Assembly: GCA_001784175.1 (NCBI GenBank)
Contig: MFPR01000028.1
Location: 101,955 to 165,954 of the forward strand
DNA from: Candidatus Lindowbacteria bacterium RIFCSPLOWO2_12_FULL_62_27
GTDB taxonomy: Bacteria; Lindowbacteria; 2-12-FULL-62-27
DNA: 64,000 nucleotides
Direction: 5' to 3'
The notes beneath the pieces were generated by a model. That model was not told the DNA's origin and made no database searches. It was given only the letters and a program-made list of their open reading frames with translations. The translations under genes were made by a program, and so were the position numbers. Shown here piece by piece: positions 1-62,499 of the stretch. How positions within the stretch are numbered: position 1 is the stretch's first letter; each line of letters starts with the position of its first letter.

Positions 1-98
1 CGCTGATGGAGGAGTGGTTGAAATCTTCCGGGCTGGCTCGAACCCAACTGAGCCACACGAACGACATGAGCTGGACGCTGCATGGGATCAAGGAGTGA
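1..98 (+). CDS. 3' end of a CDS entering the window (possibly a SAM-dependent methyltransferase)
   Basis: Open frame ...LMEEWLKSSGLARTQLSHTNDMSWTLHGIKE ends with TGA at 96-98; the product is a guess from the C-terminal pattern only. Confidence 0.4.
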   Translation, partial: LMEEWLKSSGLARTQLSHTNDMSWTLHGIKE

Positions 99-124
99 CG
101 AATAGCGTGCCGCGATCTCTGTGC

Positions 125-205
125 GTCCCTGTTGCTTTAGATCGGAGGGTTCGCCATCCTTGGCGAACCTTGAGCTGAGGCAACAGGGACTGTACATCCC
201 TGTAC
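125..205 (-). repeat. tRNA 3'-trailer structured element, copy 1
   Basis: Minus strand: GTACA-GGGA-TGTAC hairpin, then 11-bp stem GTCCCTGTTGC/GCAACAGGGAC enclosing GGTTCGCCA-AGGA-TGGCGAACC; homologous to 62419-62499. Confidence 0.85.
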
Positions 206-278
206 GCGCCCAAGAGGAGTCGAACCTCTGACCTTTGCCTCCGCAGGGCAACGCTCTATCCAGCTGAGCTATGGGCGC
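205..278 (-). tRNA. tRNA-Arg(GCG), CCA not encoded
   Basis: Cloverleaf GCGCCCA...TGGGCGC-G; anticodon arm TTGCC-CT GCG GA-GGCAA; T-loop GGTTCGACTCC. Confidence 0.95.
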
Positions 279-302
279 ACGCGGGTTGATTCACGCGCGA
301 TC

Positions 303-331
303 ATCCTACAACATTTTCCCGAATGCATCAA
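303..331 (-). promoter_or_regulatory. Putative sigma70 promoter of tRNA-Arg
   Basis: TTGATG-N17-TAGGAT on the minus strand just upstream of the tRNA. Confidence 0.5.
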
Positions 332-382
332 TCCGGCCGTCTGGATTTTGCGGGGGGACTGGGTTATACTGCAACCGATAAC

Positions 383-1204
383 ATGAACAGCCAGGAGAAA
401 CTTCAGGTCGAATTGTCCGAGTGCCTTAAAAACGGAAAGGCGGTCGCGGTGGCCACGGTGATTGCCGCGGACCTGTCGACGCCGCAGGGGCCGGGCGCCA
501 AGATGCTGGTCTATCCCGACGCCGCGATCTCCGGCACGGTGGGCGGCGGGCCGGTGGAGGCTTTCGTGAAGAAGGAAGCGCTCGAGGCGCTGCGCGAGGA
601 AAAGCCCCGCCTGACCGAATACCGGCTGGTCATGTCCGAAACCGGGATGTACTGCGGCGGAAAAATGCAGTTCTTCATTGAGGTGTATCCCGCCAAACCG
701 GCGCTCTACATTTTCGGCGCCGGCCACGTGGGCCGGGCGACCGCGCGGCTGGCCGAATTTCTGGGCCAGCCCGCCGTGATCGTGGACGACCGGCCGGACT
801 ATGCGGACCCGAAACTCTATCCAACCGCGACGGTCGTGTGCGAGGCGTACGATTTCGTGTTTGACCGCCTGCCGGTCCGTGAGCGGGACTCTGTGGTGAT
901 CGTGACGCGCTGTCACGCGCACGACGAGGTGTGCCTCGAGAAGGCGATGAAGACGCCGGCCGGTTACATCGGTGTGATCGGCAGCCGCACCAAGATCAAG
1001 ACGCTGTTCGGCCATCTCAACAAGCGCGGGATCAAACCCCAGTCGGACCCGCGCGTGTTCGCGCCGATCGGGATGGATCTCGGAGACGAAACGGTCGAGC
1101 AGATTGCGCTGTCGATCCATGCCGAGATCGCGAAACTGAAAACCGGCCGCACCGGCAGGCACATGCGCGAGCGGCTGGCGGAGCGAGAGGAAAAGGCCGG
1201 TTAA
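383..1204 (+). CDS. xdhC: XdhC/CoxI family molybdoenzyme maturation factor
   Basis: STPQGPGAKMLV, GTVGGG, CGG, IFGAGHVG, YIGVIGSRTK, APIGMDLG motifs; next to an Xdh-family operon. Confidence 0.92.
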   Translation: MNSQEKLQVELSECLKNGKAVAVATVIAADLSTPQGPGAKMLVYPDAAISGTVGGGPVEAFVKKEALEALREEKPRLTEYRLVMSETGMYCGGKMQFFIEVYPAKPALYIFGAGHVGRATARLAEFLGQPAVIVDDRPDYADPKLYPTATVVCEAYDFVFDRLPVRERDSVVIVTRCHAHDEVCLEKAMKTPAGYIGVIGSRTKIKTLFGHLNKRGIKPQSDPRVFAPIGMDLGDETVEQIALSIHAEIAKLKTGRTGRHMRERLAEREEKAG

Positions 1205-1219
1205 CCACCGTTTCATTTC

Positions 1220-3469
1220 ATGCCCGACGTTCTGACCACGCCTGCCTACCGGTGGGTGGGGCACAATCCGCCAAGAAAAGAATCTCTTGAGAAAGTCACC
1301 GGATCGGCCAAGTACCTCGACGACCTGAAATTCGAAGGATGCCTCCACGGCAAGACCGTCCGGTCGACCGTGCCGCACGGCCGGATCAAGAAAATCTCTT
1401 TCGAGCCCGGCGTGCCCTGGGATGAATTCACCGTCGTGACCGCCCGGGACATTCCCGGAAAAAACGTCGTGAGCCTGATCGAACTCGACCAGCCTTTTCT
1501 CGCGGACGGCCTTGTCCGGCACATGGCCGAACCCGTCGTTCTTCTGGCGCATCCCGATAAGGGGATGGCCGAAAAAGCGGTGAAGCGCGTCCACATCGAG
1601 TACGAGGAGTTGCCGGCGATCCTGACGATCGAGGAAAGTCTCGCCGGCGGAAATATCCAGTACGGGAAAGACAACATTTTCAAAAAGTATCACATCCAAA
1701 AGGGCGATCCCGAGAGCGTCTGGCCAAAGGCCGACGTCGTGATCGAGGGCGAGTACTGGACCGGACCTCAGGAACAGCTCTACATCGAGCCCCAGGGGGT
1801 CGTCGCAGTGGCGTCGCCTACCGGTGGCGTGACCGTGTGGGGATCGATGCAGTGCCCGTTTTATGTGCATAAAGGTCTCAAACCTCTTTTCAATTTGCCG
1901 GACGATCGCGTCCGCGTGATCTACACCGTGACCGGCGGGGGCTTTGGCGGCAAGGAGGAATATCCGACGCTGCCGGCGGGCCATGCGGCGCTGCTCTCGT
2001 GGAAGGCGGGCGGCCGGCCCGTCAAAATCGTCTATGACCGGATGGAAGACATGTGGGCGACGACCAAGCGGCATCCGTGCAAAACGCGGGTGAAGGCGGC
2101 ATTCACGAAGGACGGGAAACTTCTGGCCCTGAAAGTCGACGCGACGATGGACGGCGGCGCCTACGTGACGCTCTCGACGGTGGTCCTGTCCCGCGGCACG
2201 CTCCACGCATTCGGGCCGTACGCCTGCGATCATGTCGTGATCGATACCCGGGCGGTCTTCACGAATTCTCCGCCCTACGGCGCCTTCCGCGGGTTCGGCG
2301 CGCCGCAGACGATTTTCCCGCTCGAACTCCATCTTCATCGCGCCGCCTGCGAACTCGGGATCGAACCGCACGAGCTCCGTCGCCGTAATCTTCTGCATCA
2401 AGGCGACCGCATGGCCACCGGCCAGGTCATGCAGGAGGAGACGGGTCTCGAGGGTCTCATGTGGAAGGCGATGGACGAGTCGAAGTATCTTGAAAAAACG
2501 AAGGCGTATCGTGAGCACAACCGGAGCTCGACCCGGATCAAAAAAGGCGTTGCGTTGGCGCTCTTCTTTCACGGCGCCGGATTCACCGGCAGCGGCGAGG
2601 TCTTTCTCGATTCAAAGGCCGGCCTGGAACTGACGCGGGACGGCGCCGTCCGGATTCTCTCGGCCAACACCGAGATCGGCCAGGGGTCCTTCACCACGCA
2701 CAGCCAGATCGTGGCGGAGGAGCTGCGAATCCCGTACGAGATGGTCGAGGTTGCCGTGCCCGACACCGCCGTCGTGCCGAACAGCGGCCCCACCGTCGCC
2801 TCGCGGACGTGCATGGTGGTCGGTGAGCTTCTCCGGCGCGCGGCGTCTGACCTGAAGGAGGTCCTGGTCAAATCCGGCGCGCTGGCCGGGAACGGCCACA
2901 CGCCGTCCGAGTTTCGAGCGGCCGCGGGAAAATATTTGCAGAGGTTCGGAGAACTGAAAGTCTATTCCAAATACAAGCCGCCTCCGGACGTGAGCTGGGA
3001 CGACAAAACCTACACGGGCTCCGCCTACGCCGCCTATGCATGGGCATGCTATGTAGCCGATCTCGAAATCGACATGGCGACCTATCAGGCGCAGATGAAG
3101 GATTTCGTCGCGGTCCAGGAGGTGGGTCGCGTGATCCATCCCGTGATCGCCGCAGGCCAGATCGAAGGCGGCGTGGCGCAGGCGATCGGCTGGGCGCTGT
3201 ACGAAGACGTGGCGCTGAAGCAGGGCGTCATGCAGAACTGCCAGTTGACCAACTACATTCTGCCGACCACGGCCGACACGCCGCCGATTCGCGTCTTCTT
3301 TTATGAGAACCCCTATCAGAACGGTCCGTTCGGCGCGAAAGGTCTCGGGGAACTGCCGATGGACGGCCCGGCGCCGGCCATTGCGGCCGCGGTCGCATTT
3401 GCGCTGGGGGACCGCATCATTCCCCGAATTCCGATTTTGCCTGAAACCATTCTCGACGCGATTTCATGA
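1220..3469 (+). CDS. Xanthine dehydrogenase family molybdopterin-binding subunit
   Basis: KVTGSAKY, GGGFGGK, AFRGFG, EIGQG, GQIEGG, GAKGLGE motifs. Confidence 0.93.
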   Translation: MPDVLTTPAYRWVGHNPPRKESLEKVTGSAKYLDDLKFEGCLHGKTVRSTVPHGRIKKISFEPGVPWDEFTVVTARDIPGKNVVSLIELDQPFLADGLVRHMAEPVVLLAHPDKGMAEKAVKRVHIEYEELPAILTIEESLAGGNIQYGKDNIFKKYHIQKGDPESVWPKADVVIEGEYWTGPQEQLYIEPQGVVAVASPTGGVTVWGSMQCPFYVHKGLKPLFNLPDDRVRVIYTVTGGGFGGKEEYPTLPAGHAALLSWKAGGRPVKIVYDRMEDMWATTKRHPCKTRVKAAFTKDGKLLALKVDATMDGGAYVTLSTVVLSRGTLHAFGPYACDHVVIDTRAVFTNSPPYGAFRGFGAPQTIFPLELHLHRAACELGIEPHELRRRNLLHQGDRMATGQVMQEETGLEGLMWKAMDESKYLEKTKAYREHNRSSTRIKKGVALALFFHGAGFTGSGEVFLDSKAGLELTRDGAVRILSANTEIGQGSFTTHSQIVAEELRIPYEMVEVAVPDTAVVPNSGPTVASRTCMVVGELLRRAASDLKEVLVKSGALAGNGHTPSEFRAAAGKYLQRFGELKVYSKYKPPPDVSWDDKTYTGSAYAAYAWACYVADLEIDMATYQAQMKDFVAVQEVGRVIHPVIAAGQIEGGVAQAIGWALYEDVALKQGVMQNCQLTNYILPTTADTPPIRVFFYENPYQNGPFGAKGLGELPMDGPAPAIAAAVAFALGDRIIPRIPILPETILDAIS

Positions 3470-3933
3470 GCGCCCCGGCCGAAGAAAAGTCGTCGTTTGT
3501 CATCAACGGAAAATCCTGGTCCGGCGCCGTGCATCCCCTCAAGCGTCTCCTCGACACGATCCGGGAAGACGTGGGGCTCACGGGAACGAAAGAGGGCTGC
3601 GGGGAAGGCGAATGCGGCGCCTGCACGGTCTTTCTCGATGGGCAGGTCGTCATGAGCTGCATGGTGCCGACGTGCCAGGCGGAGGGAAAACAGATCACGA
3701 CCATCGAGGGACTGGCTGAAAACGGGCGGCTCCATCCCATGCAGGAAAGTTTCGCGCAGGAGGGCGGCGCGCAATGCGGGATTTGCACGCCGGGCATGAT
3801 CATGGCGGCCGTCGCCTACGCGCGCGATCCCGGCTCCGCGGAGGACATGCGCGAAGCCCTGGCCGGCAATCTCTGCCGGTGCACCGGCTACATCCGGATT
3901 TTTGAAGCGGTCAAGAAGGCGATGGCAAAATGA
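3466..3933 (+). CDS. (2Fe-2S)-binding subunit, xanthine dehydrogenase family
   Basis: GTKEGCGEGECGACTV, QCGICTPG, NLCRCTGY. Confidence 0.95.
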   Translation: MSAPAEEKSSFVINGKSWSGAVHPLKRLLDTIREDVGLTGTKEGCGEGECGACTVFLDGQVVMSCMVPTCQAEGKQITTIEGLAENGRLHPMQESFAQEGGAQCGICTPGMIMAAVAYARDPGSAEDMREALAGNLCRCTGYIRIFEAVKKAMAK

Positions 3934-4847
3934 AATCGTCCATCGCCGATTTCGCCGTCATCAGCCCGCGGACGCTGGCTGAGGCATTGGCCTCCCTCCG
4001 GCAGACGCCGCCGCCGGTCCCGCTGGCCGGCGGGACCGATATCATGGTCCTGTTGAACGCGGGGCAGCTTGAGCCGGGTGTCTATTTGAATTTGTATTCG
4101 GTCCCGGAACTGCGGCGTCCCATTGAAGTGTCGGCCGGCGTCAGAGACGCCGGCACTTGGGGCGCCGGAGGCGCTGACCCGCCCGGCGAAGTCCGGTTGA
4201 GCGCGCTCACGACCTATGCGGACGTGCGGCGTCATGCGGAGGTCCGGCGCCTCCTGCCGATGCTGCCGCTGGCCGCGCGGGAGATCGGCGCGGTTCAGAT
4301 CCAGTCACGGGCGACCTGGGCCGGCAACATCGCCAACGCGTCGCCGGCCGCGGACGGCGTTCCGCCGCTCATGGCCTACGACGCAACGGTCGAGCTTTCG
4401 TCCGCCGCCGGCGTGCGTCAGGTCGCGCTGAGCGAATTTTATTCCGGATACAAGCAGACCGCGCGCCGGCCCGACGAGCTGATCACCGGCATCCGGATCC
4501 CGGTTCCGGCGCCGGGCAGCATCGATTATTTTCGCAAGGTTGGCACGAGAAAGTTTCAGGCGATCTCGAAGGTGCTTCTGGCCGGCCTCGTGGAGCTGGG
4601 CGGCTCGCGCGAGATCCGAAAAATCCGGCTCGTCTTTGCGAGCGTCATGCCGTTCACCTATCGGGCCCGCAAAACCGAATCTGTCCTGGAGGGGCGCAGG
4701 CTGGAGCCAGGCGCCGTGTCCCTGGCCGTGGAAACGCTGCGAACGGAACTCAAGCCCATCGACGACATCCGGTCGACGGCTCGATACCGCCTGAAGGTCG
4801 CATGCAATTTGTTGGAGGAATTTCTGGGAACCACGATGGGCTGTTAA
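3930..4847 (+). CDS. FAD-binding subunit, xanthine dehydrogenase family
   Basis: LAGGTD, IQSRATWAGNIANASPAAD, PIDDIRSTARYR. Confidence 0.93.
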   Translation: MKSSIADFAVISPRTLAEALASLRQTPPPVPLAGGTDIMVLLNAGQLEPGVYLNLYSVPELRRPIEVSAGVRDAGTWGAGGADPPGEVRLSALTTYADVRRHAEVRRLLPMLPLAAREIGAVQIQSRATWAGNIANASPAADGVPPLMAYDATVELSSAAGVRQVALSEFYSGYKQTARRPDELITGIRIPVPAPGSIDYFRKVGTRKFQAISKVLLAGLVELGGSREIRKIRLVFASVMPFTYRARKTESVLEGRRLEPGAVSLAVETLRTELKPIDDIRSTARYRLKVACNLLEEFLGTTMGC

Positions 4848-4909
4848 GAAGTGTTCTGGCATGAATGCCGACGGTTTGATACAATGGGGATGATGGGGGT
4901 GAAGGACGT

Positions 4910-5305
4910 ATGAGTAAACCTGTTCGCGAAGTCGAGGTGACAACCACGGAGGAATGCAAAGGCCGGGTGCGGGCGCTCGTCGATTCGGGGTCATATCATA
5001 CCTTTATCCGGGAGGACAAAGTCCCCGCCGGCGCCCTGGTTGTGAAAATGAAGTCTCCCAAATTGTTCGGGCAGGCCGAATTGGACACGAAACTCGTCGC
5101 CATCGGCACGATCTATCTTCAAATCCACATTGAAAACCATGACATCGATGCGCATGCGTTCGTTTCGCCGAAATTGACGGTCGACATGATTATCGGGGCC
5201 GGCGACATGCAACGTTGGGACATTTCCGTTGTCAACGATAACGGACATACCTCCCTCCGTATCGGCCACGACCTCAACGACCCCGACGTCCAAACGGTGC
5301 TGTGA
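4910..5305 (+). CDS. Retropepsin-like (clan AA) aspartic protease
   Basis: ALVDSGS catalytic motif and downstream IIGAG motif; 131 aa. Confidence 0.75.
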   Translation: MSKPVREVEVTTTEECKGRVRALVDSGSYHTFIREDKVPAGALVVKMKSPKLFGQAELDTKLVAIGTIYLQIHIENHDIDAHAFVSPKLTVDMIIGAGDMQRWDISVVNDNGHTSLRIGHDLNDPDVQTVL

Positions 5306-5389
5306 TGAGTATGATGTCCCTTAGATCATAAATGACTTGGGGCTGACTCCGTTCCCGTCTCTGCCCCACCCCCCGCCCGAATTTTTCGC

Positions 5390-6106
5390 CTACGATCCTT
5401 CCAAGTCGATCAGGATGTCAACCCGCCGGTTGACTTCCTTGCCTTCCTCGAAATGGTCTTTCAGCTCATACGTCATGGGATCGAATTCCGCCCGGCCGGA
5501 AATCGTGACCCGCGAAGGATCGACCCGGTGCCGGTCCATCAGGTAGTGTCCGACGGAGGTGGCCCGGGCCGTGCTGAGTTCCCAGTTGGAGGGATAGAGT
5601 GGCGAGGAGGACGGCGCGTCGTCCGTGTTTCCCTGGATGGTGAATCTGTTCGAAATGAGGTTGAGAAACGATCCGACGCGGTCCAGGACTTCCTGGGCGC
5701 TCGGCAGAAGCTCGGCGGAGTTTGGGCCGAAGAGCAGGAGACCCGACACGCGGATCACGAGCATCTTCCGTTTGGTTTCGACGTTGATCCCTTTTGTTCC
5801 GACCGCCTCCAAGTGCGACGTCAATTTCAGGCTGACGTCCTGGGACGGCCGGCTGTACGGCAATAGTCCCTTCCCGCTTCCCATCGCCACGGAAATGTGT
5901 GTCTTGCTGCCGGCCGGAAAAACTCCGAAGACCCTCGAGAGCGCGACGCCCAGCGATTCGATCTTTTTCTTTTCCGGATTCGAGATGGCCGCGATGACGA
6001 TGAAAAACACCAGGAGCAGCGTGATGAGATCCGCGTAGGTCAGAAGCCACCGCAGACCCCCGGCCGCGTCATGCCCGCCTCCGCCATGTCCCTTCTTTTT
6101 AGACAT
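5390..6106 (-). CDS. motB: Flagellar stator protein MotB (OmpA-like C-terminal domain)
   Basis: WLLTYADLITLL helix with conserved Asp; SNWELSTARA; NRRVDI. Confidence 0.93.
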   Translation of the reverse strand: MSKKKGHGGGGHDAAGGLRWLLTYADLITLLLVFFIVIAAISNPEKKKIESLGVALSRVFGVFPAGSKTHISVAMGSGKGLLPYSRPSQDVSLKLTSHLEAVGTKGINVETKRKMLVIRVSGLLLFGPNSAELLPSAQEVLDRVGSFLNLISNRFTIQGNTDDAPSSSPLYPSNWELSTARATSVGHYLMDRHRVDPSRVTISGRAEFDPMTYELKDHFEEGKEVNRRVDILIDLEGS

Positions 6107-6139
6107 ACGCTACAAGTATATGGCTGCGGAAACCGGATT

Positions 6140-6940
6140 TCAACCTTCCTTCTCGACCTTCTTCTCCAGTTTCTTCGCCTCGTCCGGCGGCAGATACGCG
6201 AGGAGGCGGATCTTGACGATCGCGGGGTTTTCGCCGTGCTCGATGGCGAGGATGCCGTCGATGGTCATCTTCCGGTACAGCATCTCCGCCTTGTGCTTGG
6301 ATTTCAGCTTTCCGCCGACCGGCAGGAAGAATACGTTGGCCGAGAAGATTCCGAAAAACGTGGCCAGAAACGCCAGCGCAATTCCGGCGGCCAGCTTGCC
6401 CACGTCGCCGCCGGATTCTTCAATGCCCCCCAACACGTGGACGGTTCCCATGACCGTGCCGATGATGCCCATGGTCGGCGCGTAGCCGCCGGCCGTGGTC
6501 CAGATCTCGCCCAGCCCGCTGTGCCGCTCGTCGATGATGTCAAGCTGGGTCTCCATGATGCTCTTGGTGACTTCCGGTGCGGTGCCGTCCACCACGAGCT
6601 GCAAGCCGTTTTTCAAAAACGCATCGGCCAACTGCTCGATGTCCTCCTCGAGCGATATCACGCCCTCGCGCCGCGCCTTCTCAGCCAGGCTCACGATGAC
6701 TTCGATCAGTTCCGTCGGCTCAAACTTGATCTCGGTAAATGCGATCTTGAGCATCGTCCACGCTTTTTTGACTTCCTCGGTCTTGTGATTCAGCAGTGTG
6801 GCGCCGATGGTTCCGCCGAAAATGATGGCCCAGGCCGAAGGGGCGTACAGCACGTGCATGATGTGCAGCCCCTCCATTTTCATCATGATGATCAGGCCGG
6901 CCATTGCAATGCCTAAGCCCAATACGCTTGACATGTCCAC
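6140..6940 (-). CDS. motA: Flagellar stator protein MotA
   Basis: ARREGVISLE, GLQLVVDG, APTMGIIGTVMG, GENP; GTG start with GGAGGG RBS. Confidence 0.93.
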   Translation of the reverse strand: MDMSSVLGLGIAMAGLIIMMKMEGLHIMHVLYAPSAWAIIFGGTIGATLLNHKTEEVKKAWTMLKIAFTEIKFEPTELIEVIVSLAEKARREGVISLEEDIEQLADAFLKNGLQLVVDGTAPEVTKSIMETQLDIIDERHSGLGEIWTTAGGYAPTMGIIGTVMGTVHVLGGIEESGGDVGKLAAGIALAFLATFFGIFSANVFFLPVGGKLKSKHKAEMLYRKMTIDGILAIEHGENPAIVKIRLLAYLPPDEAKKLEKKVEKEG

Positions 6941-7117
6941 AGACTCAGTCCCTCCAGAACCGTTTGTCTCTCTTTTCGGCAAATGGCACGAGCAACATAA
7001 ACTTAGCGCTTCGGCCGACCCACGGTCGGGCCCGGTTCCCATTGCCTTCCGAACGGTTTCGGTTACAATAATTCAAGTATTTCTCTGATTTCAAGGTTGC
7101 CGAATCGAGGATGCCTG

Positions 7118-8203
7118 ATGAAAGCGAAAGACATGCTGGAACGCCTGTTGTCTCTGCCAACCGCTCCTTTCCACGAGACTGAGATCATCCAAGAAGTCGA
7201 AAAAAGTCTCGGCCGAATGAGAGTGAATTTGAGAACGGACCGGTACGGCAACAGAATCGCGCGGTTGAAACAGGGAGGACCCTCCGGCCCGCCCCTTGCG
7301 CTCGTGGCCCACATGGATCATCCGGGCTTTGTCGTCCGGCAATCCCGGCCCGGGTCGGCGCTCGTTCAACTGCTGGGCGGCCTTGGTCACCGGCTCGCGG
7401 GCCGGCGTCTGAAATTTGTGTCGTCGCCCGAATGCGTCGGCGTGATCAGCCGGGTTGCCCGCAAGGATGCTTCCGGACGGCCGACGCACGTGTGGGTTCG
7501 GACCCCCCTTCAAAGGGGGTTCCGACTGCCGCACGGGACGTTTGGCGTGTGGGACGTGCCGGCCTTTCGCCGGCGCGGGTCGAAAATCCACGCGCGGTCG
7601 ATCGACGATGTCTGCGGCGTGGCCGTCATGCTGGAAGTCCTGCGCCGGCTCGGCCGGTCCCGGCGGCCGGTCGATCTTTACTGTTGTTTCACGCGCGCGG
7701 AGGAGGTCGGATTCGTGGGTGCGGCCGGCCTTGCGCGCACGAACATTCTTCCGCGGCGTGCCAAACTCATCTCGATCGAAATGAGCCGGGAATTGCCGGG
7801 AAAGGCTGACCAGGGAAAAGGATTTGTCATCCGTGCGGGCGATCGCGCGAGCCTCTTCGATCCGGGGCTGGTGGGGTTCATGATCTGGATCGCGCGGCGC
7901 ATGCAGGCGGCCCGAAAGACGTTTCAGTTCCAGACGGCCATCCTGGACGGCGGCACATGCGAGGCCACGCTGTTCAACGCCATGGGTGGCTGCGCCGCCG
8001 GCGTGGCCCTGCCCCTGCGCAACTATCACAATCAGGCGCCGGACGGACACATCGCGCCGGAATGTATTGATATGCATGATCTGAACTGCCTGGTGGATTT
8101 TCTTGAGGAACTTGCGGGGCAAATGAGAAATTGGGGACAGGATCGCCGGGCGCTTCGATCTCGACTGGACCGGAATTTCAGGACTTGGAGGAAATACCTG
8201 TAA
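7118..8203 (+). CDS. M42/M20-family metallopeptidase
   Basis: AHMDH, SIDDVCG, AEEVG, GGTCE, NYH metal-ligand motifs. Confidence 0.8.
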   Translation: MKAKDMLERLLSLPTAPFHETEIIQEVEKSLGRMRVNLRTDRYGNRIARLKQGGPSGPPLALVAHMDHPGFVVRQSRPGSALVQLLGGLGHRLAGRRLKFVSSPECVGVISRVARKDASGRPTHVWVRTPLQRGFRLPHGTFGVWDVPAFRRRGSKIHARSIDDVCGVAVMLEVLRRLGRSRRPVDLYCCFTRAEEVGFVGAAGLARTNILPRRAKLISIEMSRELPGKADQGKGFVIRAGDRASLFDPGLVGFMIWIARRMQAARKTFQFQTAILDGGTCEATLFNAMGGCAAGVALPLRNYHNQAPDGHIAPECIDMHDLNCLVDFLEELAGQMRNWGQDRRALRSRLDRNFRTWRKYL

Positions 8204-9197
8204 CCTCCAGCACCGCCGCGCCCTGTGTCTCCCGCCGGCGGATCCGGTCCAGCGCGGTGTTCGCCTCCGACAGATCGTACCGTTCCACGCTCACCCGGAT
8301 GGGGATGCGGGCGGCCAGATCCAGAAATTCGGTCGCATCCCGGCGCGTGCAGTTGGTGACGCTGCGGATGCCGCGTTCGCCGTAGAGGAGGGCGTACTCG
8401 AAGGCCGGGATGTCCCTCATGTGGATGGCATTGACGGCAACCGTCCCGCCTTTTCGAATCTGCCGCAGCGCTTGAACGACGACCGCGCCGGCCGGCGCAA
8501 AGACGGCGGCGCAGTCCAGCGGCGCCGGAGACGGATCGCCGGTGTCGCCGGCCCACGCCGCGCCGAGCGTCCGCGCCATCCGGCGATGCGCGTCGTTTCG
8601 GGTAAACGCGTATACTTCGCATCCCCACGATCGGGCCATTTGCAGCGCAAGGTGCGCAGACGCGCCGAACCCGAACAACCCGAGCCGGTCTCCTTTTCGG
8701 ACGCCGGCGATACGGAGCGTGCGATACCCGATGACGCCCGCGCAAAGAAGCGGCGCCGCTTCGAGATCGTCGAACGCGGCGGGAATCGGCGGCGCGAAGT
8801 CCGCGCGGGCGACGAGATATTCGGCGAAGCCGCCGTTCACGTGGTATCCCGTGAATCGCGCGCCCTCACAGAGATTCTCGTCGCCCTGCCGGCACCGGTC
8901 ACATTCGCCGCAGGCGCTGTGAAGCCATGGAACCCCCACGCGTGCGCCAACCAGATGCGCCTCAACTCCCTCGCCGGCGGATTCGACGACCCCGACCGCC
9001 TGATGCCCCAAAATCACGGGCTGCCGGCCGGCCGGAATCTCGCCGTCGACGATATGCAGGTCCGTGTGGCAGACAGCGCAGGCATGAACTCGAATCAAAA
9101 TCTCACCCGGTCCCGGCGTTGGGCGGGTCTGCTCATTCAACGTCAGCCGTCCGGCCTCATACACCATGGCCCGCATCCGCTTCGCGCTTTCGGTCAT
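8178..9197 (-). CDS. Zinc-dependent alcohol dehydrogenase (AdhP-like)
   Basis: CHTDLH, GHQ, CGECDRC...ENLC, APLLCAG, GFGASA. Confidence 0.93.
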   Translation of the reverse strand: MTESAKRMRAMVYEAGRLTLNEQTRPTPGPGEILIRVHACAVCHTDLHIVDGEIPAGRQPVILGHQAVGVVESAGEGVEAHLVGARVGVPWLHSACGECDRCRQGDENLCEGARFTGYHVNGGFAEYLVARADFAPPIPAAFDDLEAAPLLCAGVIGYRTLRIAGVRKGDRLGLFGFGASAHLALQMARSWGCEVYAFTRNDAHRRMARTLGAAWAGDTGDPSPAPLDCAAVFAPAGAVVVQALRQIRKGGTVAVNAIHMRDIPAFEYALLYGERGIRSVTNCTRRDATEFLDLAARIPIRVSVERYDLSEANTALDRIRRRETQGAAVLEVTGISSKS

Positions 9198-9907
9198 CTG
9201 AAATGCGCCGACCCGAATTTCTCCGGCGCGTGAAACCAGCGGTACGTCGGCGACCAGGCCTGATAGTGATGTTTCCCCTCGATGTGATCGACGCGGGTGA
9301 GGTTGAGCCGGAACGTCCCATGGATTTTCGCGGGAAGCTCAGTCAATGGAATCGCGATTTCGCACGTCCAGCTTTTCATGACTCCCGCGCGGCCCCGCCG
9401 CTGGACCTGCGCGGCGACCCGGACCGACGCCAGGTCAAACGCTTTCGCCCGGTCAAAATCGATGTTGGGCCCGTACTCGACCCAGCCGTCGTAGAGCGCG
9501 CCCCGCGGATTCACCTCGATCTCCAGATACTCCCGCCCCTCTCCGGTCGGGTCCAGGAAAATCTCCACCGCCTCCTCCCGCCACAACTCGTCGTCCCGTT
9601 TCGTCATCTCCGCCTTCGCCTCATCATCGGCGCAGAAAAATCCGACATACAGGACATCCTGCCGGCGAATCAACCGGACGATCGTGGGATGCGCGAGTTG
9701 TCCGCCCGTGTGGTTGTCCCGGAGAACCACGCGGGCGGCCTCCCGCCAGGACCCTTCGGTCAGGCGGCCATCCACGTGGATCGTCTCCAGCGTCGAAGGA
9801 ATCCACATGGCGGGCAACGGCTGCTCCCCGGCCTGCAGGCGGCCGGAGAGCAGAAGGAGCGTTAACAGAATGAAGGAGAACATTCCTTTCGGCAACTTTT
9901 GTTTCAT
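9194..9907 (-). CDS. Secreted carbohydrate-binding family 9-like protein
   Basis: Signal peptide; VDGRLTEGSW, VEIFLDP, YLEIEVNP, WTCEIAIP, WSPT..FHAPEKFG. Confidence 0.8.
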   Translation of the reverse strand: MKQKLPKGMFSFILLTLLLLSGRLQAGEQPLPAMWIPSTLETIHVDGRLTEGSWREAARVVLRDNHTGGQLAHPTIVRLIRRQDVLYVGFFCADDEAKAEMTKRDDELWREEAVEIFLDPTGEGREYLEIEVNPRGALYDGWVEYGPNIDFDRAKAFDLASVRVAAQVQRRGRAGVMKSWTCEIAIPLTELPAKIHGTFRLNLTRVDHIEGKHHYQAWSPTYRWFHAPEKFGSAHFR

Positions 9908-10006
9908 ACGGGTCTCTGATATAGACGTTACTATGCAGGCCAGAAATTTTCATGTCCGTCAGGCCGGTCGCCGGCCCGCCTGAAGGAAAGGCGAGGATCG
10001 GCGGCC

Positions 10007-62336: not shown

Positions 62337-62419
62337 GCCGGTGTGGCGGAACGGCAGACGCACCAGGTTCAGGGCCTGGCGGCCGCAAGGTCGTGGGGGT
62401 TCAAATCCCTCCACCGGCA
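62337..62419 (+). tRNA. tRNA-Leu(CAG), CCA not encoded
   Basis: GCCGGTG/CACCGGC-A acceptor; CCAGG-TT CAG GG-CCTGG; long variable arm; GGTTCAAATCC. Confidence 0.95.
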
Positions 62420-62499
62420 TACATGGATGTATCGTCCCTGTTGCCCCAGACTCAGGATTTTCCAGGGATGGAAAATCCCTCAACCCAAGCAACAGGGAC
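62419..62499 (+). repeat. tRNA 3'-trailer structured element, copy 2
   Basis: ATACA-TGGA-TGTAT, then GTCCCTGTTGC/GCAACAGGGAC enclosing GGATTTTCCA-GGGA-TGGAAAATCC. Confidence 0.85.

Follow-up and report, generated by a model that had tools for sequence, protein, structure and literature searches.

The 3' flank of a tRNA-Arg gene near the start of the window, by which we mean the whole 64,000-nucleotide stretch of DNA analysed here, carries one copy of an element that is best read as a structure-targeting repeat of the MITE/REP type with CsrA-consensus hairpins. The host is an uncultured groundwater bacterium from a phylum with only four species genomes. A family of such elements exists, with a covarying structure; its members abut stem-loops and occur in both orientations relative to tRNA transcription. 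Their presence varies at orthologous sites, and the same tRNA is associated with different subfamilies in different genera.

The first-pass annotation had described an architecture of about 81 nt, counted from the discriminator base, that is common to tRNA-Arg and a tRNA-Leu gene. Sequence and folding bear this out far beyond chance, with folding z-scores of -6.7 for the Arg copy and -4.5 for the Leu copy (200 shuffles each). As had also been said, neither tRNA gene encodes a CCA. The features of the window are as follows.

205..278, - strand: tRNA-Arg(gcg), no encoded CCA (Rfam RF00005, 68.6 bits; ARAGORN 279-204; sequence)
192..205, - strand: hairpin 1 of the Arg copy, G-TACA-[GGGA]-TGTA-C (sequence, folding, helix-1 pair counts)
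125..190, - strand: 66-nt stem-loop of the Arg copy (sequence, alignment, folding; covariance-model match of 96.1 bits at G000:C28:102079-102159)
62337..62419, + strand: tRNA-Leu(cag), no encoded CCA (ARAGORN, Rfam, sequence)
62419..62432, + strand: hairpin 1 of the Leu copy, A-TACA-[TGGA]-TGTA-T (sequence, folding)
62434..62499, + strand: 66-nt stem-loop of the Leu copy (sequence, folding; covariance-model match of 90 bits)

Discriminator G205 of tRNA-Arg(gcg) is also the first base of hairpin 1, and discriminator A62419 of tRNA-Leu(cag) starts hairpin 1 of the Leu copy, which as a whole spans 62419-62499 on the + strand. The reported covariation of the discriminator with its partner (G-C in Arg, A-U in Leu) is evident in the sequence. 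In the Arg copy a single base, A191, separates hairpin 1 from an 11-bp outer stem in which GTCCCTGTTGC (190-180) pairs with GCAACAGGGAC (135-125). This stem encloses a 9-bp inner hairpin, GGTTCGCCA-AGGA-TGGCGAACC (169-148), flanked by internal loops of 10 nt on the 5' side and 12 nt on the 3' side. The Leu copy has a single C in place of A191, the same 11-bp outer stem, and a 10-bp inner hairpin, GGATTTTCCA-[GGGA]-TGGAAAATCC (62455-62478), whose stem differs from that of the Arg copy and still pairs. In both copies, then, the outer stem is identical and the inner stem diverged but paired, as originally described, and the third ACAGGGA noted in the outer stem is present in its 3' arm. Describing the element as shared by tRNA-Arg and tRNA-Leu was correct but incomplete, because many more copies exist in the genome.

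The exact outer stem occurs at five places (five stem-loops) in the 4.39-Mb genome of the host (its own genome, G000). Using nhmmer and a covariance model built from 12 copies, we recovered 12 units of at least 75 bits there, plus weaker variants; the covariance model gives 33 matches at E<=1, a number that includes reverse-strand echoes and the weaker variants. In an alignment of the 12 copies, 97.3% of 299 cells in the three helices are paired, and both partners have changed in 9 of the 25 pairs. None of 500 shuffles reached the observed covariation score, and controls with slid partners gave at most 43.8% pairing. The first pair of helix 1 is AU in seven of the 12 copies and GC in four. Both loops keep GGA in every one of the 12, preceded by a base that takes all four values. 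The strong copies are only about 81% alike, and thus most of them are not recent.

The plan of the unit, a short NGGA-loop hairpin followed by an outer stem around a second NGGA-loop hairpin, is also found in diverged subfamilies that keep the architecture and have no stem sequences in common. A 78-nt subfamily (subfamily C) opens with GGACA-GGGA-TGTCC and continues with GTCCCCAACGC. A compact subfamily of about 85 nt has GCGACA-CGGA-GGTCAGC, an outer stem CGTCCCCGCC and an inner hairpin CGTCCGACA-GGGA-TGTCGGACG; it has 13 strong nhmmer matches and two diverged ones in the own genome. Further subfamilies have a long first hairpin.

G000 C4:293360-323763 (5 copies), C4:362667, C21:14808, C21:15335, C11:37601, C24:34621, C30:41073, C37:32061 and C5:22946: loci of the compact subfamily

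The flanks of compact-subfamily copies resemble coding sequence. The sequence ATCAGGGA, a possible footprint, recurs after units.

NGGA tetraloop hairpins taken as a whole show no genome-wide excess in the own genome; only the specific CA-NGGA-YG type with longer stems stands out. A permissive structural descriptor returned 450 candidates that were mostly spurious, and it was dropped. Scanning the trailer against Rfam, as the first-pass annotation had suggested, brought up no family other than tRNA: Rfam 15 at gathering score found nothing else in the window, and at E<=10 positions 90-290 matched no Csr/Rsm family and no intron. Plasmid and phage collections gave no match at E<=0.01. In a limited set of literature on CsrA sponges, tRNA-adjacent hairpin repeats and MITEs we found no account of such an element.

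The positions of the copies follow a consistent rule. In all 12 strong units of the own genome, hairpin 1 lies directly 3' of a stem-loop on the same strand. For six this stem-loop is a tRNA 3' end (Arg gcg, Leu cag, Lys ttt, Leu tag, Lys ctt and Trp), and for one it is the 5' end of tRNA-Gly(ccc), taken in the reading of the opposite strand. Three units stand behind three different terminator hairpins with a T-run, beyond the T-run, and two follow a previous unit in tandem. The relatives contain 29 model matches in 16 loci, of which 19 were inspected, the other 10 being reverse-strand echoes of the same places. Among their nine matches of at least 68.9 bits, four come after a T-run, two lie antisense at tRNA 5' ends, one follows another unit, one follows a tRNA-like 3' end absent from the ARAGORN calls, and one is ambiguous.

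Looking across the tRNA genes of the own genome, a CA-NGGA-YG hairpin lies within a few bases of a tRNA end at 13 of 79 ARAGORN calls, versus about 0.06 expected if the 163 hairpins of this type were spread evenly over the genome. Seven of these hairpins are at the 3' end in sense orientation, five at the 5' end in antisense, one at the 3' end in antisense and none at the 5' end in sense. The 3'-sense and 5'-antisense classes are equal at the DNA level because an acceptor-type stem lies at the 3' end of the complementary strand of a tRNA gene too; in both, the GGA-strand hairpin is 3' of such a stem. The remaining 66 calls have no such hairpin, and these include all 29 calls of a single array. 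The count of 13 leaves aside a few looser hairpins noticed by eye behind tRNA-Pro and tRNA-Tyr. The array itself (G000:C27:1563-6958) packs its 29 calls into 7 kb, leaving only a few bases between neighbours; some of the spacers contain a different type of GGA-loop hairpin. This array may be of phage type or accessory.

Copies also occur away from intact tRNA genes. A 78-nt unit sits in frame inside an Aconitase_C-type (LeuD-like) ORF, where it adds 26 residues through the insert GQGCPVPNASDSENSRREFSPVRVGG (L110:396-473, that is G000:C1:109195-109272), and a second unit of the 78-nt type, at G000:C23:10627-10704, gives a similar peptide. A model-based scan for tRNA linkage and strand specificity therefore supports the first-pass expectation only in part: many copies are at tRNAs, and others are at terminators, in an ORF, or in the opposite orientation at tRNA 5' ends. 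To this extent the copies show the scatter in both orientations that the same annotation had associated with an ordinary REP or MITE.

Two further observations concern tRNA-like sequence. Repeat units abut tRNA fragments, namely the 3' part of a tRNA-Leu (L109, G000:C14:58582-58700, - strand) and the 5' part of a tRNA-Arg(tct) (G000:C17:105284-105325), which may be remnants of integration at tRNA genes. Several tRNA genes are followed directly by 4-9 T (for example at G000 C28:236515, C37:99894, C27:11475 and C33:33313). A tRNA with a T-run may itself serve as a terminator hairpin, so that tRNA ends and terminators would look alike to a hairpin-seeking agent.

The family was seen only in the four genomes of this small phylum. 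The covariance model matched all three other genomes of the host family at E<=0.001 and none of 57 genomes of other families; within the phylum, three of the four genomes match at E<=1e-4. A pattern joining a tRNA T-loop to hairpin 1 found only four stretches in 185,579 species genomes, three in one groundwater MAG and one in another. The first pattern run against the collection had given 97 stretches, and the covariance model confirmed the element in two of the 80 loci scanned.

Comparison of orthologous sites reveals turnover. The tRNA-Arg(gcg) orthologues of the three relatives (G001, G002 and G003) are 95-96% identical to that of the host, and each is followed by unrelated sequence with no element. 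On a syntenic metagenome contig (L171), which has an xdhC-like gene (77% identity over the part present), tRNA-Arg and the converging gene, only 10 nt separate the tRNA from the converging stop codon, versus the 80-nt element plus 26 nt in the window. No target-site duplication is evident when the two sites are compared. The first-pass annotation had proposed a coupling of tRNA synthesis to CsrA activity; absence of the element from all three orthologous tRNA-Arg genes and from L171 speaks against such a coupling as a conserved feature and argues for insertion. At tRNA-Leu(cag), the site is empty in G001 and G002 and holds a unit of another subfamily at the same position in G003. The spacer between Lys(ctt) and Leu(tag) has a sense unit at the Lys 3' end in G000 versus an antisense unit at the Leu 5' end in G002, with hairpin 1 against a tRNA end in both. 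G003 has 38 matches, 16 of which score 39.5-39.9 bits, and this clustering suggests a recent burst. The relatives are incomplete MAGs (G001 88% and G003 81% complete). Contigs from four DNA runs covering C3:1-20000, a region with two tRNA-linked units, break at the repeats, where foreign tRNA contigs pile up. The sequencing runs that contain window positions 1-10000 comprise 10 DNA runs from five studies and no RNA run.

Our search for mobilising machinery found no transposase, reverse transcriptase or autonomous parent with these ends. All exact occurrences of the outer arms (five stem-loops, own genome) lie in short units, none in a longer parent with the same ends. Y1_Tnp genes (RAYT-like, about 300 aa) number eight in the own genome and six to ten in each of the four genomes.

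G000 C41:78398-79324, C1:98328-99293, C24:13768-14643, C22:14409-15506, C43:154921-155889, C24:56316-57329, C36:19716-20714 and C44:3832-4833: Y1_Tnp (RAYT-like) ORFs, 292-366 codons, diverged
L164:1241-3152 (G000:C10): group II intron with a reverse transcriptase ORF (Rfam group-II-D1D4-6, 132.8 bits, and Intron_gpII)

By BLAST, most of the eight Y1_Tnp ORFs have 25-55-nt repeats near their ends, made of tandem heptamers and a GC-rich part. Many of these recur elsewhere in the genome; the Y1_Tnp genes have flanking inverted repeats of their own, unrelated to the element. The 14 flank segments inspected carry other motifs and no NGGA hairpin, and a RAYT/REP link was rejected. Reverse transcriptases are present in the genome, one of them in the group II intron listed above. 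The ends of this intron have no visible likeness to the element, and this link was likewise rejected. A RAYT-type repeat lies just downstream of the intron.

We consider the element probably to be a non-autonomous, structure-targeting mobile repeat, MITE/REP-like and forming a lineage-specific superfamily, because orthologous sites are empty, the subfamily at a given tRNA differs between genera, a copy lies within an ORF and units abut stem-loops. A new copy would land directly behind a stable stem-loop that is already there, on its 3' side as the GGA strand is read. Three kinds of site would qualify: tRNA acceptor ends, whichever DNA strand they are on; intrinsic terminators, at the T-run; and the outer stems of earlier units. 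Such positions would be ones where insertion is harmless. Insertion would act on a folded single strand, either DNA or RNA, and both NGGA hairpins may be recognised by the mobilising machinery. As a side effect, a sense unit behind a CCA-less tRNA would give the pre-tRNA an 80-nt trailer, and a cut after the discriminator would release this trailer with two CsrA-consensus hairpins. Counter to mobility are the missing enzyme or parent, the other repeats that flank the Y1_Tnp genes, the unrelated group II intron, the lack of a visible target-site duplication and the divergence of the copies, most of which are not recent. Moreover, an invariant GGA preceded by a free base, in stems without common sequence, would also be expected from binding of a host protein such as CsrA, and differences in presence between genera might reflect deletions.

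The case for CsrA begins with its SELEX consensus, RUACARGGAUGU, in which a short hairpin carries GGA in its loop (excerpts of PMC7652899). Hairpin 1 of the Arg copy matches this consensus exactly, as the first-pass annotation stated. That annotation also placed csrA outside the window and proposed looking for csrA and fliW. Both are encoded by the genome, adjacent to each other on contig C20. The predicted CsrA has 85 aa (L166:2612-2869, - strand; Pfam CsrA, 88 bits), and its gene lies next to fliW, between flagellin genes. The flagellin leader by csrA contains GUGGCUCA-AGGA-UGAACCAC, a CA-AGGA-UG hairpin 20-25 nt upstream of the Shine-Dalgarno sequence CAAGGAGG; in G002 the corresponding hairpin, GCAGUUCA-AGGA-UGAACUGC, has a changed stem that still pairs. 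Conservation of this hairpin with altered stems in two genera indicates that the native CsrA site of the lineage looks like the hairpins of the element. The GGA strand is the tRNA's own 3' trailer at seven tRNA loci, and where flanking genes are co-directional it is the transcribed strand at eight loci versus one. Given the consensus match, the CsrA in the genome and the similar flagellin-leader hairpins, CsrA can probably bind GGA-strand transcripts of the element. In a separate observation, a 57-codon ORF with no Pfam match lies upstream of another flagellin, of 507 aa (L167:1273-1349, or G000:C37:77272-77348, - strand). One hairpin, GUAUCCA-CGGA-UGGAUAC, stands in front of this ORF and a second, GGACA-UGGA-UGUCC, contains its AUG; by its sequence this leader looks like the CsrA type.

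Alternative explanations differ in what they take the functional molecule to be. The trailers of CCA-less tRNAs could be selected multi-site CsrA decoys, or CsrA could gate tRNA 3' maturation; tRNA transcription would then be coupled to CsrA activity, and mobility would be only the means by which the module spread. Arguing for this are the exact consensus match in a format like the short, GGA-looped stems selected by SELEX (PMC7652899, in part), two exposed GGA loops per unit that are invariant in 12 of 12 copies, the csrA-fliW pair with its similar leader hairpin, and the bias in transcribed strand. We nevertheless regard it as unlikely. Five of the 13 tRNA-abutting hairpins are antisense at 5' ends, so that the co-transcript has UCC loops, and orientation overall is untied to tRNA transcription (7 versus 6). 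The element is conserved at no given tRNA, terminator-linked copies lie beyond the T-run, some copies are in ORFs, and it is the complementary strand that folds better. RNA antagonists of CsrA are described, in the excerpts of PMC7652899, only for Gammaproteobacteria, which lack fliW, and the FliW protein is named there as the antagonist elsewhere. Finally, csrA and fliW were found in two of the four genomes (G000 and G002) and not in G001 (88% complete) or in G003 (81% complete), which has the most copies; these two genomes also lack the neighbouring flgL-like gene, and the locus may therefore simply be unassembled. The proposal that trailers act as CsrA sponges thus keeps its support from the consensus, the encoded CsrA and FliW, the seven sense trailers and the flagellin leader, and loses ground on orientation and orthologues. 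A sponge role of the element would be a testable minority reading, which these results do not refute. Somewhat less improbable, although still doubtful, is a mobile element whose payload would be a pair of high-affinity CsrA sites, with decoys scattered to highly transcribed, harmless positions near tRNAs and terminators. Such a payload might, at similarly low odds, amount to a distributed equivalent of CsrB in a FliW-type bacterium outside the Gammaproteobacteria, its dose following tRNA transcription and terminator read-through. The element might in that case depend on CsrA for its own stability or spread.

Alternatively, the functional molecule could be the complementary strand, as a long and nearly continuous RNA hairpin that would serve as a 3'-end stabiliser or terminator of converging genes, as a tRNA 5' leader, or as a C-rich-loop RNA pairing with Shine-Dalgarno sequences. 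The UCC-loop strand has the lower RNA folding energy in 17 of 21 canonical units. This gap vanishes when G.U pairs are forbidden; there are 59 such pairs on the UCC strand versus 15 on the GGA strand, counts that are not independent because the copies share ancestry. At four convergent loci (Arg, C43 and two on C1) the converging stop codon is 3-27 nt from the element, and thus the UCC strand is the 3' UTR of that gene. At tRNA-Gly(ccc), two units in UCC orientation separate the tRNA from a gene of the same strand. However, the 78-nt subfamily has no folding bias, and no U-run follows the hairpin on the UCC strand, which at the eight co-directional loci is antisense to every gene nearby. On the GGA strand the internal loops consist mostly of C.A oppositions, and the bias could equally mean that these loops are kept open; either the UCC strand is the one that folds or the GGA-strand loops are held apart. 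We consider a function of the UCC strand quite improbable. Least credible of all, to the point of being nearly dismissed, is a vertically inherited, immobile processing or termination signal of particular tRNA genes. In its favour, the element starts exactly at the discriminator, and its first base pair follows the discriminator (G-C at Arg, A-U at the others). It is already contradicted by the empty orthologous sites (tRNA-Arg in three of three relatives, and L171), by the other subfamilies or orientations that occupy the same sites in other genera, by copies behind protein-gene terminators and in ORFs, and by the 66 of 79 tRNA calls that have no hairpin.

Several known systems resemble the mobile repeat that we favour. 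REP and REPIN sequences are short, structured and mostly extragenic repeats, present in tens of copies with covarying hairpins and moved by RAYT (Y1 HUH) transposases. The element is like them in size, structure, location and copy number, and its host has eight Y1_Tnp genes; unlike them, it flanks none of these genes, has two NGGA hairpins and abuts stem-loops. Rickettsia palindromic elements are MITEs also found inside genes, and the element is similarly a small non-autonomous repeat with a unit of 78 nt, a multiple of three, that is read through in an ORF. It is like a MITE in being short, in its many copies and in its presence or absence at orthologous sites. It differs from the usual MITE in that we found no parent IS, and perhaps also in its ends: no target duplication is visible, and the 11-bp outer stem, which forms an inverted repeat, may not count as terminal in the usual sense, with hairpin 1 placed outside it. 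The E. coli 3'ETS-leuZ, a tRNA-spacer sponge, base-pairs with sRNAs and is conserved within a single operon. The element likewise lies in the 3' external spacer of the tRNA transcript at seven loci, but it is repetitive, its binding motifs are of the protein type, and orthologous tRNAs lack it. CsrB, CsrC and RsmX-Z, the decoys of Gammaproteobacteria, also have repeated GGA-loop hairpins that match the CsrA consensus (PMC7652899, in part), whereas the element has only two exposed sites per unit, is a dispersed repeat without an Rfam match and resides in a host with FliW. Its units have no stand-alone sRNA gene layout: a unit begins on the final base of a tRNA, or else at a T-run or an earlier unit, and is not followed by a U-run. 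Closest in behaviour among known systems are group IIC introns such as B.h.I1 of Bacillus halodurans, which are located behind terminator motifs or other inverted repeats (PMC1702495, in part). Insertion just downstream of terminator-type stem-loops is the shared trait, and three units of the own genome and four of the relatives lie directly after a hairpin and T-run. In contrast to these introns, the element is 81 nt long and has no ribozyme domains, no reverse transcriptase and no Rfam intron match.

If the element is mobile, it would be a compact bacterial repeat that chooses its landing site by the shape of the nucleic acid, on the 3' side of a stem-loop and on either strand of a tRNA gene, a mode of targeting otherwise documented for group IIC introns. 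One would then ask what enzyme could move a sequence of 81 nt like this. Should CsrA bind the transcripts, RNA antagonism of CsrA would extend beyond the Gammaproteobacteria to an organism that also has FliW, and the binding sites of a regulator would have been spread by a mobile element. For annotation, hairpins in tRNA flanks and near terminators in this phylum should be checked for the repeat before they are called regulatory RNAs.
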